From a virus (lineage: Duplodnaviria > Caudoviricetes): DNA of 64,000 bases. Each line of letters begins with the position of its first letter. Positions within the stretch are counted from its first letter, which is position 1. Below are positions 11,917-29,425 of the stretch, piece after piece. Both the position numbers and the translations under genes were made by a program. Location of the stretch: the IMG/VR virus record IMGVR_UViG_3300027986_000001, positions 1 through 64,000 of that record; one strand, 5' to 3'. The notes beneath the pieces were generated by a model. The model did not search any database, had not been told where the DNA came from, and saw nothing but the letters and a program-made list of their open reading frames with translations.

Positions 11917-12585
11917 ATGGCAACCAGCACCGCAACACCAAAGGCAGTTGTTTCAATTCCGGCCCCGAAGTTTGGGGAGGCCGAGTTCGAGATCATCGGG
12001 ACTGAGGTTTTAGTAATCCACAGGTTCTCCGCCAAAACCAAACAGCAAATGAAATCAAAGATGGAAGAAGGTAAAAGTGCGGGCAGCAAGAAGAACCGCG
12101 AGGCCACATCGACTGATGATTTGTACCAAGCGGCCCGGTACATCAGCCCTGAAGGGTGGGATGGATTTCACGCCGCATCAATCCGCAATGCAATGATAAG
12201 CGCCTGCCGCTTAGTGGGCTACAAGATGACTCTCGCAAAAATGAGCATCTTTGTTTTGGCGGACGGGCACGACGCAATCGAGCCTCAGATTCCACTGGTC
12301 CGCATCTATGGCGAGCCTAAAAAACAAGAGGACATGGCGCGCGTGGAAACCGGCCAGCCGTACGTGACGGTGCGTGCGGCGTACCATGACTGGAGCGCCA
12401 AGGTCCGCATTCGTTGGGACTCTGACCAGTTCAAGTTGGAGGATGTTAGCAATCTGCTTTCAAGAGTAGGATTGCAGGTAGGTCTATGTGAGGGCAGACC
12501 GGACTCCAAAAACTCCTGCGGTATGGGCTGGGGCCTATTCCGTATCAAGGGGAGTGAAGACAATAAATTAGAGGCAGCAGCGTGA
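11917..12585 (+). CDS. solo RAMP superfamily (Cas7/Csm3-like) protein, putative guide-RNA-binding effector
   Basis: AAGGAGG RBS; beta1 motif FEIIGTEVLVIH, GFHAASIRNAM (cf. RAMP iPgsslKGalR), C-terminal Gly-rich loop GLQVGLCEGRP...GMGWGLF; 222 aa. Confidence 0.7.
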   Translation: MATSTATPKAVVSIPAPKFGEAEFEIIGTEVLVIHRFSAKTKQQMKSKMEEGKSAGSKKNREATSTDDLYQAARYISPEGWDGFHAASIRNAMISACRLVGYKMTLAKMSIFVLADGHDAIEPQIPLVRIYGEPKKQEDMARVETGQPYVTVRAAYHDWSAKVRIRWDSDQFKLEDVSNLLSRVGLQVGLCEGRPDSKNSCGMGWGLFRIKGSEDNKLEAAA

Positions 12586-13008
12586 CAAATCCGACTATCA
12601 TCGCAGAATTGAAAAGGGTAGCCGCCGAACATGGCGGCTATCTCCGCCCGAAGGATGTTGTTAAGGCGGCCCGTGAGGAAACCTCGCCATTACACAGCCA
12701 GTTCACCTGGGATAACAATCTCGCCGCTGAAAAGTACCGCCTGCATCAAGCGCGGCAATTAATCTCGGTGGTGGTCGAGTACACGGGGCCTGAAATGAAT
12801 CAGATGAGCCGCGTGTTCGTCTCCTTGACTGAGAATCGGCGTGAGGCGGAAGGGTACATTGAAACCGCCGTCGCAATGTCTGACCCGAGAAGACGCGAAA
12901 GGCTTTTAAAAGGATGCGCTCTTAGAGCTGCGTGCGTTTCAAAAAAAGTATGCTGATCTTGAGCAGTTGGCTAAGGTTTTCGCCGCTTTGGATGACGTGG
13001 CGGCTTGA
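12582..13008 (+). CDS. small partner protein of the RAMP gene (L.P..VV.AA....SPLH..F.WD...AA..YRL.QAR.LI); 1-nt frameshift near 12908-12911
   Basis: GTGA overlap with RAMP stop; removing one A in TTTAAAAGG gives ...LLKDALLELRAFQKKYADLEQLAKVFAALDDVAA* ending 13008. Confidence 0.7.
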
Positions 13009-13632
13009 GTTCGGTTTGGTTCGGCTGGGCAGGTAGGGAGCGGCAAGGTGGGATGAGGCTCGTCCCGATCAAGGCAAGGTTCGGCAGGCGAGGGATGGTG
13101 GGTTATGTTAGGTTGCGGCGCGTAACGGGCTGTCTCGGTCGGTAGTGGGAGGCAAGGTTGGGCAGGAGCGGCCAGGGAGGGTCCGTTAAGCTGTGGAATA
13201 GCGGGGTGAGTTTTGGCAGGTGTGGCAATGAATGATCTGCCGGGGCGAGGAGGGATTTAGAGAGGTCTGGCAGGCGCGGACTTGTGTGGCAGGCATTTGG
13301 TCGGGATGGCAGCGGAATGTCCTGGAAGCGCAGGCTAGGGCTGGAATGGTCCGGGTTGGTATGGATAGGTGTTGCGGGCGATGGCAAGGAAAGGCCGGTA
13401 TGGAGGGGGCTGCAGGGGACAGGTCTGATGGGGGCAGTTGCGGCTAGGACTGGCTGGATTCGGTTTGGCGGGCCTGGACAGGATGGCCTCGGAGCGCCTG
13501 GGTCAGGCCCGGCCTGTATGTGGCGCGGCAGGCAAGGAAAGCTGGAGCTGGGTGCGTTGTTGTTGGCATGGAGTGGGAGGGCAGGCGAGGGATGGACAGG
13601 CGAGCAGTGGAATGGAAATGCAGGAGTGGAAA
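13009..13632 (+). ncRNA. main array of GGN-NN pentamer repeats, units delimited by GGCA(GG); putative guide RNAs
   Basis: 5-nt GG periodicity; GGCAGG at 13028, 13083, 13161, 13215, 13269, 13288, 13527, 13580; several units exactly 54 nt (10 pentamers + GGCA). Confidence 0.8.
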
Positions 13633-13644
13633 AAGGGAGGCGGA

Positions 13645-14476: not shown

Positions 14477-14554
14477 GGTGCGGCAGGCAAGGTGGGGCAA
14501 GGTAGGTTTGGGGCAGGATCGGTCCGGCGTGTAAGGGCAGGCGAGGCGCGGCAT
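14477..14554 (+). ncRNA. orphan pentamer array B (one full 10-pentamer unit 14486-14535 between GGCA delimiters)
   Basis: ggca ggcaa ggtgg ggcaa ggtag gtttg gggca ggatc ggtcc ggcgt gtaag ggca. Confidence 0.8.
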
Positions 14555-14602: not shown

Positions 14603-14911
14603 ATGGGGTCAACAACCAACCGATGGCAGTCGCCGGTCAGGCCGCGAGAGCTGCGCCGCATGCTGCGGGAGAAAGAGATCAAGATGGCCCCGATCCCGCC
14701 CATGCCCCCAGAGTACACGGACTACCGGCAGAAGCGTCTACGGTTTGCTGTTAGCTGTGCGGTCCTGTTCTTGAAAGGCAAAGACTACGAAGGCATAGCT
14801 CGAAAAGTCGGAATCCGGCGGTCGATCTCTAAACAAAACTTGCAACTCTATATTTCCAAGGGCGCGAAGTTTCTCATAGACAGGGGCTGTTTTATCGGGT
14901 TAAAGACATGA
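14603..14911 (+). CDS. basic protein, probable HTH DNA-binding
   Basis: GKDYEGIARKVG...SKQNLQLYISKG; promoter TTGACT 14559/TAGCCT 14582. Confidence 0.6.
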   Translation: MGSTTNRWQSPVRPRELRRMLREKEIKMAPIPPMPPEYTDYRQKRLRFAVSCAVLFLKGKDYEGIARKVGIRRSISKQNLQLYISKGAKFLIDRGCFIGLKT

Positions 14912-18814: not shown

Positions 18815-21046
18815 ATGGCGCGTGACGCCGGGATAGACGCCCTAGTCGAGTACTACGACCGCCATATTCCTGACCGCTTCGGATTCAAGCCGGAGGAGTG
18901 GGTACAGCTTCCGCAGGCGCAGCAAATCGCAATGCTAACCCCGCAGGAACGACAGGCGATATTCGAGCAAGTGCAACTCTGCAAGTCCAGCTTTGAATAC
19001 GCTGCGCGCAACTATTTCTGGTTGGTGAACAACGAATCAAAGGACCAACTCTTCAGTCTCTGGGAGAGCCAGTATCTGGTCCTAGAAACGATGCGTCGGA
19101 TTAAAGAACGCGGCAAGGCGCAGAAAATTTTCGTGATCAAGGCCCGCAGACTCGGATGTTCAACTTTGATCGAGGCCCTGATTGCCTGGAGGGCAATTTT
19201 CTTCCGCAACGTGTACGGAATCGTAATTTCAGTTGACGAGGACGATGCGGCCTACCTGTTCGGATTCATGCAGCACTTCTACGACAAACTGCCGTGGTGG
19301 ATGAAGCCGGAGATCTCGTCCCGCGAAATCAAAGGCGGTCTAATATTTGACAGAAAAGACCCAAGTTTACGTGCCGTAAATCCGGGAAATAACTCGGAGG
19401 TCAAAGTTCAGTATTCCACGCAGTTCTCTGGTGTCGGCCAGGGCCGCCGCGTAAGTGCGGCTCACATTAGCGAAATGAGTGACTACGAACAAAAGCGCGC
19501 TGAGGAGATCGTAATGGAGGATCTCACGCCAGCTATCCATCCTACGCCGGAAAACTTTGCCTTCATCGAAACAACCGGCAAGGGAACTGGCAATATGACT
19601 CACCGCCTATGGCGGGCGTCTGAAAAGTTGGCCGAACGGGCGGAATGGTATCCCTTGTTTCTTGCGTCATTCTTCGAGCACAGTCGAACGATATTCGTTC
19701 CTGATGAGTGGAAACCGCAGCGGCCAGAGTTGGCCATTCGCGAGCGAGTCCGAAAGGAATGGGTAAAGTGCAATCACTGTAATCAGTTTCAGCACGCCAT
19801 AGAAGATCGGGTGAAGATGCTGGATGCTACCTGCCCAATGTGCTTAAAGGGGAAAATGCTGGAGGTTATCCTGACCCCTGGTCAGCTTGGGTGGATGGAG
19901 GAGCGCAGGATTCAGGCCGAGGCCAACGGTCGTGAGGCGGTCAAGAAGTACAGGCAGGAATTTTCGATCTCGGCGGAGGAGAGCTTCCAGGTTAGCGGTT
20001 ATTCAGTTTTTGATGACCAGTGCTACGAGAAAGTCACGGAAACGATCGAAGACCCGGAGCATAATGCTTACGTAAAAGTCGGCCTGATTGGCAACCCAGA
20101 CGGTAAGTTCCACGGCTATAATCCCGACACCAAAAAGTGCTACGCCGAGGGCTGCACCGACGATCACCGCATGCTGTCGCCGATGGACGCGCTGTTCACG
20201 ATCTACCGCGATCCAGTTCCAGGCGCTGAATATTCTATCGGCTGCGACGTGTCCGAGGGGATCGGGGAAGACTATAGCGTTATCTTCGTGAACCGAATCG
20301 GGGGGCAGCATGCTCCGGATGAGGAGGTCGCCGTCTGGCGGGACAACTGGACCGACCCAAAGGCCGTATCGTTCTTCTGTAACGCGATTGGCCGCATGTA
20401 CAATGACGCCTTGATGGCTATCGAGTACAACCTCTACAACATTGTCGGCGACGACGTGCTGTACAAATACCAGTACCCCAATATCTACATCTGGAAAAAC
20501 AAAGAAAACCGCCACGGCGTTCTAACCCACAAATACCATTGGTGGACGAAGGCCGGGAGCAAGACGCTGCTCTACCAGACGGCGAGATCATGGCTCCGAT
20601 CCGGCGCGTGGATCATTCATTCCAAATTATTCCGCGACGAGATGACGACCTTTGTCAAAGAAGGTTTTGAGGAGAGAAACGCAAAACACGCCCAAGATCA
20701 GCACGATGATTTGCTTATGGCAGCAATGATCAGTCTCTACTGCCCCCATGAACTCGATACGCAGGAAGGCACGGGCAGAATACCTGTCCCGCAAATCGAG
20801 GACAACAATGCTCCCAAGGACTGGTTAATGCGCTGTGGTGCCTGCGGCGGGGAATGGGAGGCCGAGAGGCCGGACGTGTTTTACTCCTGCCCGCTGCCGG
20901 ATGAGGTAAATGGCGGCGTATGCGGGTCGATTCAGATCACCGGCAAGCGCAAGATTGAGCAGAGAAACGAAGTAAGGATAGACTTCCCGCCGGGGAGTGT
21001 TGAGGAAGCTGGCTCCAACGCTGAATTAAGTTGGAACCAGCTTTGA
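18815..21046 (+). CDS. terL: terminase large subunit
   Basis: Walker A VIKARRLGCST, Walker B AHISE, IETTGKG, nuclease IGCDVSEGIGEDYS, AIEYN, HDDLLMA. Confidence 0.95.
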   Translation: MARDAGIDALVEYYDRHIPDRFGFKPEEWVQLPQAQQIAMLTPQERQAIFEQVQLCKSSFEYAARNYFWLVNNESKDQLFSLWESQYLVLETMRRIKERGKAQKIFVIKARRLGCSTLIEALIAWRAIFFRNVYGIVISVDEDDAAYLFGFMQHFYDKLPWWMKPEISSREIKGGLIFDRKDPSLRAVNPGNNSEVKVQYSTQFSGVGQGRRVSAAHISEMSDYEQKRAEEIVMEDLTPAIHPTPENFAFIETTGKGTGNMTHRLWRASEKLAERAEWYPLFLASFFEHSRTIFVPDEWKPQRPELAIRERVRKEWVKCNHCNQFQHAIEDRVKMLDATCPMCLKGKMLEVILTPGQLGWMEERRIQAEANGREAVKKYRQEFSISAEESFQVSGYSVFDDQCYEKVTETIEDPEHNAYVKVGLIGNPDGKFHGYNPDTKKCYAEGCTDDHRMLSPMDALFTIYRDPVPGAEYSIGCDVSEGIGEDYSVIFVNRIGGQHAPDEEVAVWRDNWTDPKAVSFFCNAIGRMYNDALMAIEYNLYNIVGDDVLYKYQYPNIYIWKNKENRHGVLTHKYHWWTKAGSKTLLYQTARSWLRSGAWIIHSKLFRDEMTTFVKEGFEERNAKHAQDQHDDLLMAAMISLYCPHELDTQEGTGRIPVPQIEDNNAPKDWLMRCGACGGEWEAERPDVFYSCPLPDEVNGGVCGSIQITGKRKIEQRNEVRIDFPPGSVEEAGSNAELSWNQL

Positions 21047-21047
21047 G

Positions 21048-21117
21048 GGCACGAGCCATTTCGCGCCTGACCATTCCGTACTGGTCCTGTCCTACCCGCT
21101 TCGGTCCTCACCACGCC
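21048..21117 (-). ncRNA. orphan pentamer array C (14 pentamers)
   Basis: Minus strand: ggcgt ggtga ggacc gaagc gggta ggaca ggacc agtac ggaat ggtca ggcgc gaaat ggctc gtgcc; TATACT just upstream. Confidence 0.8.
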
Positions 21118-21176
21118 CGAAATCAGTATAGTACAAAACTCTTGACTTTGAGCAAAATGTTTTACATACTTCTCTC

Positions 21177-21743
21177 ATGCCAAAAACACTGATTCACACG
21201 CAAATCGAGTTGGAGTCAGAGCAGATTGAAAAGTTGACCAGTATGGTAGAAGAAGAGGCATCCGTGGCCGAGAAGGTAGGGGGGCTAGCCCAGACTGCTC
21301 TGACTGATCTAGCTAACGGCGGAATGATGTTAGAGCCAATCACGATGCGCGCTCTGGAGCAGTCCATTGGACAAGCCATCGAAGGGCAGGGCCAAATCCT
21401 TAGTTTGGTCGAGGCCGGTGCCGGTCAAGCAGACGGAAGGATGGTGCTAAAGTGGAGCATCGACCCAACGTACATGCCGCAATTGGAGGCAATGGCGACG
21501 TTCCAGGAGTGTTCGGTATTAGAACTTGCGCAGCGGACAATTGACACTTGCGTGGACCAGGGATGGGCTATCGGGGATGTGCAGCCGATGCCGGAGCGCG
21601 TGCTGATGTCCAAGGAAGACAAGTCGGCCATAGAGCAGGTGCTGGGCGGCGCGTTCACTAACGGGACAGAATTGTCCCAGCTACTCAAGGTCGCCCTCGG
21701 CATGACCTCACCCTTCACCGAGGAGCCACTGGCGGCGAAGTAG
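21177..21743 (+). CDS. hypothetical protein
   Basis: Leaderless promoter TTGACT 21142/CATACT 21165. Confidence 0.7.
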   Translation: MPKTLIHTQIELESEQIEKLTSMVEEEASVAEKVGGLAQTALTDLANGGMMLEPITMRALEQSIGQAIEGQGQILSLVEAGAGQADGRMVLKWSIDPTYMPQLEAMATFQECSVLELAQRTIDTCVDQGWAIGDVQPMPERVLMSKEDKSAIEQVLGGAFTNGTELSQLLKVALGMTSPFTEEPLAAK

Positions 21744-22331: not shown

Positions 22332-22425
22332 GGCAGGAGTGGCGAGGTCAGGATAGGTTAGGTCCGGTCAGGCGCGGCGCAGGGAGGAGAGATATGGCAT
22401 GTTCCGGTCTGGCAGGGCAGGAAGG
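22332..22425 (+). ncRNA. orphan pentamer array D (15 pentamers after GGCA)
   Basis: ggca ggagt ggcga ggtca ggata ggtta ggtcc ggtca ggcgc ggcgc aggga ggaga gatat ggcat gttcc ggtct ggcag. Confidence 0.82.
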
Positions 22426-22433
22426 GAAAATGC

Positions 22434-22832
22434 GTGCCGGTATTTGAGCATCAGTGTAACTCTTGCGGAAGGGTGGCCGAGCATTATTACGGTCACCCGC
22501 CGGAGGTGAATCCGCCATGTGAGATTTGCGGCGAGCCGACAGAGCGTCTACTTAGCGCATTTAATTCCCCGTTCACCGGAATCATATCCTCCCGCTACAT
22601 CGACCGTTCGATCAAAGGCTCCGAGTCCGCTAGTGATGGGCATTGGGCTTGGGAGCGCAACACTCCAGACAAAAAGCCAAGGGCTCGGTTTATCAGTTCA
22701 TGGCAGGAGCAGCGGGACTTCTGTAAATCTGAAGGCTTAATCAACCCCCGTGAATGCGGCAATAACATCCAGCCGCGCGATGACGGCAAGGGGCTCCAGA
22801 ACTCGGTCGGGATGCCGGGGTGCGAAGTCTAG
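22434..22832 (+). CDS. FmdB-family zinc-ribbon protein
   Basis: MP.FE..C..CG...E........CEICG....RL.S. Confidence 0.8.
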   Translation: MPVFEHQCNSCGRVAEHYYGHPPEVNPPCEICGEPTERLLSAFNSPFTGIISSRYIDRSIKGSESASDGHWAWERNTPDKKPRARFISSWQEQRDFCKSEGLINPRECGNNIQPRDDGKGLQNSVGMPGCEV

Positions 22833-28201: not shown

Positions 28202-29425
28202 ACGGCCTTACAACTCACTGAGTTGGACGCCTATGTACATGACCACATCGAGCCGCGTTAAGTGATAGCGCCATGAGCATGAGAGTGCTCATGCAAACCC
28301 CGTTAATTGCTGGGAAGCCTCACCGAGGCAATCAGCAGCGAAGCCCAGAAATGGGAACGTTCAACGACTATCCCGAAAGGGAGTAGGGCCAAGTGGTCCG
28401 AAATGCGGGGGGTCCAGAAATGGATCGTGATATAGTCTGGCCTGCATGGCGACATGCAGAAGGATCGGCCTAACGAGCTGATTCGAAACAACTTAGCGAC
28501 CACTGACGTAGTGTACGCCACATCTCCTGTGTTCACTCGGCTGTCCCAGCAGAACGCCGAAAAGTTCTCGGGCAACAGTCAGATCCGGCGTCCCATCATC
28601 GTTGGGATGCTGAACGGCGGCGTCATTGGACGCGGCGGATCGGTGCCGGTGGACTTCGTGGTCACGGACGCGGCCTTGACCGCTCTGATGAAGGTCTACT
28701 GGGTCGGCATTACGTTGTATGGCTTCGATGCCATGAACAACGACGGCCCGGAGGCGATCTTCAATCAGGTCGAGATGAAGTTCCTGAACGCCTCGCTGAA
28801 GATGGCCCAACTGCTGGCGACCGATATGTACCTCAACGGCCAGAGTTCGACGGGGCGCACATTGAACCTCAACGGCCTGCAGGAGTGGTACGACGACGGG
28901 ACCAATTTCCCGACTGTTGGCGGTCAGAACCGGACGGACATCAACGGTCAAGCCACGGGCACGCCCGGCGGGCTGAATGCCTTCACGGCCAACGTTACCA
29001 GTTTTACGCTGCAGACGCTCAATACGGCCTACGGCAACGCCTGCTGGGGTCCGGATCACCCGGATCTGATCGCGGTCACACAGAACGGCTGGAACCTGAT
29101 CTGGAACGGCCTGCAGCCAAGCCAGCGCTACGCCAACGTCGAGAACGACCTGGGCAACATCGGTTTCACGAATTTCCGTTTCAACGCGGGCGATGTAGTG
29201 ATCGACCGATACATGCCTACCGGGACGAGCGGACTGATGCTCGGGATGAACACTTCGTATGTCGAGTGGTACTTCTCAAACGTCCCGCTTTTCCAGTTTG
29301 GGTTCACGGGCTTCAAGGGCTCGGACAACACCATCGGCGATGTTACGGGACAGTACGTGGCAGGTACGAATCTCCTCGTACCAAACCCCAGAACGGGATT
29401 CAAGATAACGAGCTCACTATTTTAA
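28202..29425 (+). CDS. major capsid protein, join(28202..28258, 28499..29425), ~327 aa
   Basis: Spliced N-terminus (M)ALQLTELDAYVHDHIEPR|TTDVVYATSPVFTRL; capsid-like body (GG..G.G, D...N.G...IF, L...MY..G, NGL); AAGGAGG RBS before an ACG codon. Confidence 0.85.
28259..28498 (+). ncRNA. group I intron (240 nt, no ORF) in the major capsid gene
   Basis: P AATTGCTGGGAA, Q AATCAGCAG, R GTTCAACGACTA, S GATATAGTCT; exon 1 ends in U, intron ends in G; splicing restores frame. Confidence 0.9.

Follow-up and report, generated by a model that had tools for sequence, protein, structure and literature searches.

On the minus strand of a phage from a soil metagenome, between the gene for the terminase large subunit and a gene for a 188-aa protein, lies a short array of pentamers (array C, 21048..21117) whose variable letters appear to spell a version of the 188-aa gene that is not the phage's own. 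This raises the question of why a phage would carry, beside one of its genes, what looks like a guide to another allele of the same gene. The phage genome is 99,896 bp, and the window (the whole stretch of DNA that was analysed and to which the coordinates refer) is its first 64 kb.

A pentamer array with the form of a VIPR guide

The repeats give array C the form of a free-standing guide RNA from a system that is already known from preprints of 2026, namely VIPR, a CRISPR-like, phage-borne DNA silencer (bioRxiv 10.64898/2026.04.26.720920). As described there, the guide (vrRNA) has 9–16 repeats in which a conserved GGY alternates with a variable dinucleotide (NN). According to the VIPR preprints (2026), each repeat is bound by one Vipr protomer, NN pairs with the DNA while one nucleotide is skipped, the skipped base is usually the wobble position of a codon, and the system silences the transcription of competing phages and satellites. 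In the SUSP1 structures, the R-loop grows in the direction from the 3' tail to the 5' end of the guide (10.64898/2026.04.26.720927). The published surveys use a cut-off of at least 80% of the NN letters for a natural target, and they found no self match that reaches 80%. Seven types of VIPR have been published, and the work reported so far is in two enterobacterial and Pseudomonas clades. The first-pass annotation had called this a candidate non-CRISPR RNA-guided system. The system is real, but it had already been described, as VIPR (10.64898/2026.04.26.720920). Because the VIPR papers explain the form of the array, we dropped TRAP-like or CsrA-like protein-binding repeats, two-tetrad G-quadruplexes, and DNA-binding arrays as explanations for it.

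Array C is a vrRNA-like tract of 14 pentamers of the form GGN-NN, read on the minus strand from 21117 down to 21048 (units 1–10 run from 21117 to 21068 and units 11–14 from 21067 to 21048). The first seven units are GGCGT GGTGA GGACC GAAGC GGGTA GGACA GGACC, the last seven are AGTAC GGAAT GGTCA GGCGC GAAAT GGCTC GTGCC, and the NN string is GT GA CC GC TA CA CC AC AT CA GC AT TC CC. (Reading the letters again directly gave the same pentamers and the same string as the first-pass annotation.) Of the 14 units, 10 begin with GG and 13 with G; the third base is a pyrimidine in seven units, A in five, and G in two. The array thus has the 9–16-unit repeat form of a vrRNA, with what is better called a related consensus than a strict GGY.

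Units 11–14 fold into a hairpin with a 7-bp stem (21048..21067, minus strand), and they may be a 3' tail rather than guide. Directly 3' of the array is another predicted hairpin, with a 14-bp stem (21006..21043, minus strand), which is a candidate for a structured vrRNA tail or a terminator, and the 71-nt region 3' of the array has a folding z-score of −6.2. This second hairpin overlaps the last codons, on the plus strand, of the terminase large subunit gene (18815..21046, with PHROG terminase matches), whose 3' end extends into the array-C module. On the other side, unit 1 is preceded, at a distance of 7 nt, by a −10-like hexamer, TATACT (21125..21130, read from 21130 to 21125 on the minus strand). 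The array had been credited with a promoter of its own, and this part of the earlier reading is not confirmed: a promoter scan found no sigma-70 promoter on the minus strand, and the hexamer has no −35 element that would be acceptable. Rfam gave no match at any of the phage's arrays, and a megablast of the region against GenBank phages gave no match.

The match to the neighboring gene

The resident 188-aa gene (21177..21743, plus strand) is of unknown function and lies between the genes for the terminase large subunit and the portal. Its protein belongs to a family with at least 173 cluster representatives. A promoter-like site precedes the gene (TTGACT-17-CATACT, 21142..21170, plus strand) and is conserved in L120, a syntenic 24-kb contig from ENA that is the only close relative on record. 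The site that is cognate to guide C comprises codons 95–108 (IDPTYMPQLEAMAT, 21459..21500, plus strand), and these 14 codons span the family's conserved motif, [IVL]-D-P-x-[YW]-x-P-x-[LIM]-[EQ]-x-x-A.

Guide C matches this site at 18 of 28 letters, in frame and in the sense orientation, with NN at codon positions 1–2 and the skipped target base on the wobble position. (Positions 21459 and 21177 share a reading frame, as do the homologous position in L120, 10283, and L120 position 10001.) The first-pass annotation had reported the same in-phase count, and we reproduced it exactly. Among about 200,000 positions on both strands of the genome, 18/28 is tied for the best, and the chance that such a count would fall beside the array is about 0.02–0.04. 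The raw count is nevertheless marginal because two other, unrelated sites in the genome also reach 18 and because the local score is unremarkable: with local +1/−1 scoring of the guides against the genome, 75% of 1-kb windows hold a site as good as that of guide C, the site of guide D (see below) is likewise not singled out, and guide B alone stands out. The original hand estimate (about 2e-3 for the whole gene) is reasonable for a count made in frame but takes no account of the choice among decodings.

As the best score of guide C in its own genome is 18/28, or 64%, guide C has no self-target at 80% or above. If we consider units 1–10 only, the match to the resident gene is 12 of 20 letters (60%), which is at the level of noise: 216 sites in the phage's own genome are as good, and the genome maximum is 14.

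Other decodings of the array (other positions within the pentamer, other skips, or a reversed order) gave no adjacent match, with one exception. Positions 3–4 of the pentamers, which are off register, match the 188-aa gene in antisense (minus strand, 21494–21535) with 20 of 28 letters; this match is in wobble phase and has the highest score in the genome. We rejected this antisense match because the homologous site in L120 has only 12/28, and it probably arose by chance.

The guide as a foreign allele

The relation between guide C and the adjacent gene becomes clearly non-random only through the family profile, the homolog in L120, and a test of shared letters. For the profile, we used the dinucleotides of 149 homologs and left out the resident and L120 alleles. 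Guide C scores 16.8 bits against this profile. Of the 199,046 other windows in the genome, none scores as high, and permuted guides do so with P = 2e-5. Reading the guide from any of the other three position pairs of the pentamer gives −20 to −41. The concern that random genes might score equally well, which was raised when the match was first noticed, is thus not borne out by the windows of this genome.

On L120, the homologous protein (P0002) is 64% identical to the 188-aa protein and reads VDPVYLPTMQNMAD at the homologous codons. Guide C matches L120:10283-10324 at 21 of 28 letters (75%), which is the unique best in that locus (the next best site has 17). So, as had been predicted, a homolog fits the guide better than the resident gene does (21/28 vs. 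18/28). For units 1–10, the match to L120 is 18/20 (90%) and is unique in L120, as compared to 12/20 for the resident gene; this reading of units 1–10 was made post hoc, after seeing the data.

The letters at which the guide departs from each allele are also informative. Guide C differs from the resident gene at 10 of its 28 letters, and at seven of these 10 it has the letter of L120, which would be surprising if random decay of the resident gene had given rise to the guide (P ~ 1e-4). This agrees with the proposal in the first-pass annotation that the guide represents a homolog of the gene and not a copy of it that has decayed. Conversely, guide C differs from L120 at seven letters, and four of these are the resident's letter (P = 0.01). 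Because it shares letters with L120 and with the resident gene, guide C is a third allele of the family. (With guide C alone, the informative letters are seven for L120 and four for the resident, which is not significant.) Given the family profile, the match to L120, and the shared letters, we consider it secure, as a statement about sequence, that guide C belongs to the family of the 188-aa gene.

The mismatches between guide C and L120 are mostly in units 11–14, that is, in the 3' units. As the R-loop proceeds from the 3' end in the SUSP1 structures, it matters whether these units are guide or tail.

L120 does not carry array C. The alignment of the two genomes continues on either side of an insert of about 96 nt, which consists of the array plus the hairpin. 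When 20990–21046 is compared to L120:9900–9955, the hairpin is seen to encode the last terminase codons in this phage, so the insertion of about 96 nt changed the C-terminus of the terminase large subunit. We also asked how strongly the resident and L120 genes diverge at the target windows. The target site of guide C is in the top 6% of windows for divergence and that of guide B is in the top 21%, that of guide D is not elevated, and there is no general signal that target windows are hot spots of divergence between these genomes.

We found no target at 80% or above for the full 14-unit guide C in any collection searched, which included viral, metagenome, and genome contigs. Among viral contigs, the pattern of units 1–10 gave no match; units 5–14 gave a single sequence, present as seven copies in unrelated 16-kb contigs, with 22/28 letters, which is out of wobble phase and which we took as chance. 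Among metagenome contigs, a search with the family gave no match, and the gapped guide pattern gave four matches with 19–20/28 letters in cellular genes that resemble those for acyl-CoA ligase or RadC, which we also took as chance. A search of genome contigs with guide C gave no match. More distant viral relatives (L132–L134) have at most 17/28, and a protein-level reading of 151 family representatives gives an upper bound of 22/28. The best match of guide C is L120:10283, whose 21/28 (75%) is below the 80% cut-off for a natural target. The missing target at 80% or above is weak evidence because only one close relative is on record.

Sister arrays

GG tracts with a period of 5 are confined to four loci of the 99,896-bp genome (A, B, C, and D) and do not occur in shuffled sequences. 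The main array, A (about 13000–13640, plus strand), is a 640-nt pentamer array with an irregular register that follows the vipr candidate and its partner gene (see below). Its units are much less uniform than those in other phages' arrays: many are 4 or 6 nt long, and there are longer interruptions. Its in-phase blocks are short and shift in phase, and they gave no convincing target in the phage itself or in L120. The remaining two are solo arrays on the plus strand: B (14486..14535) has 10 units between two GGCA, and D (22336..22410) has 15 units between two GGCA.

Both solo guides resemble the gene next to them, and both resemble L120 more. Guide B matches the adjacent gene at 14612 (14612–14641) with 16/20 letters (80%), including 12/12 over its six 3' units, and matches L120:4547 with 19/20 (95%). 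Guide D matches the adjacent gene at 22476 with 19/30 (63%) and L120:11338 with 24/30 (80%). The matches in L120 are at the homologous codons of the genes that adjoin each array, and both guides reach the 80% cut-off for a natural target there. Summed over guides B, C, and D, 18 informative letters favor L120 and seven favor the resident alleles (one-sided P = 0.02). Partial self-binding is conceivable for guide B, as its self match of 80% equals the printed cut-off for a natural target.

Arrays B and D also have units without GG and a loose repeat, as array C does. Such units seem to be tolerated in this clade because, in B and D, their NN letters still match L120. A 3' hairpin follows array B, and one follows the solo guide of L120 (discussed below) as well; there is none after array D, and the tails have no sequence in common. 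The zinc-ribbon homolog in L120 that guide D matches (L120:11281-11689) aligns in two pieces in different reading frames, which reflects either a frameshift or an assembly error.

A Vipr candidate

The vipr candidate (11917..12585, plus strand) is 8.5 kb upstream of array C and encodes a 222-aa protein that resembles the Cas7-like RAMP proteins. It has more than 3,100 homologs. Its AF2 model has a pLDDT of 76.5, and Foldseek matches the model to Csm3, Cmr4, and Cas7-11 (E values of 2e-4 and up), which indicates a Cas7-like fold. In a sequence search against PDB, the Vipr of SUSP1 was the sole match, and it was marginal (E = 1.2). The vipr candidate overlaps a small partner gene (12582..12956, plus strand; 124 aa; PHROG 15946, of unknown function), which is a candidate vap. 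From the modeled structure, it appears that the phage has a gene for a minimal Cas7-like RAMP protein, or Vipr, that would be available for loading the guide.

What array C might do

On balance, we favor the explanation that array C is a stand-alone vrRNA gene of the phage's VIPR system and is aimed at a rival allele. It would probably be a weapon against rival phages that is kept beside the phage's own resistant allele. In our proposal, array C would be transcribed from the minus strand, and the vipr product from the 11.9-kb locus would load the transcript in trans, with one protomer gripping each GGN. The NN pairs would then be presented for gapped pairing with DNA, so that two bases are read and one (the codon wobble) is skipped. 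During co-infection by a relative, the filament would bind codons 95–108 of the rival's copy of the 188-aa gene, which belongs to the packaging module, and block its transcription, with a presumed effect on fitness. The resident copy would be spared, as it differs at 10 of the 28 guide letters (a 64% match). Because the guide adjoins the resident allele, the guide and the resistance would be inherited together. Several observations count against the rival-allele model. No target at 80% or above turned up for the full guide, and the 75% match in L120 is lower than the published cut-off of 80%. The mismatches to L120 are mostly in the 3' units, from which the R-loop proceeds in SUSP1, although this would not count if units 11–14 are tail. 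Four of the 14 units lack GG, five have A and not a pyrimidine as the third base, the scan gave no sigma-70 promoter on the minus strand, and for guide C alone L120 does not lead the resident allele significantly.

More tentatively, the solo guides and the diverged resident alleles might form linked "weapon plus immunity" cassettes, which would be small modules beside essential genes that silence the same gene in co-infecting relatives. If so, then a guide would be safe only while it is linked to the escape allele, which would favor the co-inheritance of both through recombination among related phages. This would be a poison-antidote logic for single phage genes, to which the relative L120 would answer with a solo guide against vipr.

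Array C could instead be a relic that once worked against a rival allele but is now decaying, has a degenerate scaffold, has lost its promoter, and silences nothing. We consider this unlikely. It would account for the four units without GG, for the frequent A at the third base, for the promoter that our scan of the minus strand did not find, and for the lack of a target at 80% or above in any collection searched. However, arrays B and D have similar units without GG whose NN letters still match L120, the region after array C forms a very stable and well-formed hairpin (z = −6.2), and a missing target says little when the databases hold one close relative. We give less credence still to self-regulation, in which guide C would bind the resident gene weakly and would tune or time its expression. 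The adjacent gene, in frame, is indeed the best or tied-best match in the phage's own genome for all three solo guides, and guide B matches its neighbor at 80%, with agreement at 12/12 letters in the six units at its 3' end. Yet the relative's allele fits all three guides better than the resident allele does, and the letters by which the guide departs from the resident gene are those of L120 instead of random ones. Also, the self match of units 1–10 (12/20, with 216 sites as good) is noise, and the published surveys found no self matches of 80% or above.

It is very improbable that the vrRNA-like tract is real and that its likeness to the neighboring gene is a coincidence. The raw count of 18/28 speaks for coincidence, as two unrelated sites in the genome equal it, and so does the local score, by which the site is unremarkable. 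Against this, none of 199,046 other windows matches the family-profile score, the homologous site in L120 is the unique best at 21/28, and guides B and D show the same pattern. We regard coincidence as close to refuted.

Relation to known systems

Solo guides are already in print (10.64898/2026.10.15.759431). As described there, the solo vrRNAs of the SUSP1 family and of F5 satellites are like array C in that they are stand-alone GGYNN guides away from vipr. They have a structured 3' end, for which the hairpin after array C is a candidate. They are also aimed at a competitor's homologous locus, as we propose for array C, and match their own genome less well than the rival's, which avoids autoimmunity. 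(In that preprint, a lower self than rival match is described for guides that target vrRNAs.) In contrast, the published solos are in vipr-null phages or satellites and target vipr, vrRNAs, satellites, or host decoys, whereas this phage keeps vipr and has three dispersed solos, each beside the resident allele of a gene in the packaging or early module. The candidate tail also differs from that of SUSP1, being a plain hairpin and not a pseudoknot, and the third repeat base is often A.

The type II VIPR of SUSP1 and of a P. fulva prophage (10.64898/2026.04.26.720920), as described, shares with this system the 9–16 pentamers, the wobble skip, and, beside an array, genes for a small Cas7-like RAMP protein and a small partner. 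The differences are that the sequence similarity of vipr to that of SUSP1 is marginal (E = 1.2) and that GGCA delimits the blocks in arrays B and D (array A contains GGCA too). A guide beside the carrier's own diverged allele was not found in our searches of the two preprints (10.64898/2026.04.26.720920 and 10.64898/2026.10.15.759431).

With this phage, the VIPR system gains an example from soil, in a clade of Vipr proteins that has thousands of members yet to be characterized. It is a single vipr-positive genome with three dispersed solo guides, each of which stands beside the resident copy of a gene that it seems to spell as a rival allele.

Two other kinds of phage-borne weapon are worth comparing. 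Virus-borne mini-CRISPR arrays carry a short guide against close relatives, and the carrier's own genome differs at the target. They have contiguous spacers, rely on the host's Cas proteins, and have no pentamer scaffold, and we know of no systematic placement of mini-CRISPR arrays beside the carrier's own allele. By way of analogy only, in the marker exclusion by homing endonucleases of T-even phages, a weapon gene lies beside the carrier's resistant version of the target and the two are co-inherited. The weapon there is a protein, a nuclease that cleaves DNA and spreads through repair, whereas a VIPR of this kind would be expected to silence and not to cut.

Isolated arrays elsewhere and a solo guide in L120

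A 9-unit pentamer pattern matched more than 119 contigs in IMG/VR, many of which have long arrays. In a rough survey of 37 isolated arrays of 9–16 units from unrelated IMG/VR loci (L001–L119), the best match with a 1-nt skip in the array's own locus was at most 500 nt away for 10 of the 37 arrays, as compared to about 4 expected (P = 0.006). If we consider arrays with at least 70% identity, then 7 of 13 best matches were within 500 nt (P = 1e-4). (Examples of adjacent matches are in L038, L082, L089, L101, and L113.) This survey suggests that it is a general arrangement for a solo guide to adjoin the gene that it resembles. If placement beside the carrier's own allele is the rule, then the neighbors of a solo guide could be used to predict its target, and pairs of guide and allele would record which genes related phages fight over.

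The relative L120 has no vipr in the 16.9 kb examined. At L120:3353-3417, where the phage has vipr, the partner gene, and array A, there is a promoter-driven 13-unit solo guide with a hairpin. The best match of this guide in the whole phage genome has 20/26 letters and is in frame within the vipr candidate (12346–12384), where the protein has the near-invariant ETGQPYVTVRAAY. This resembles the vipr-targeting solos that have been described (10.64898/2026.10.15.759431). From these matches, the conflict between the phage and L120 looks reciprocal: the phage's guides fit alleles of L120, and the guide of L120 fits the phage's vipr. L120 also has a TnpB or OrfB_IS605-type gene in its early region (L120:390-1508), and the aligned part of the phage has none. 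In the phage, Rfam identifies a group I intron at 28249–28459 (76 bits).
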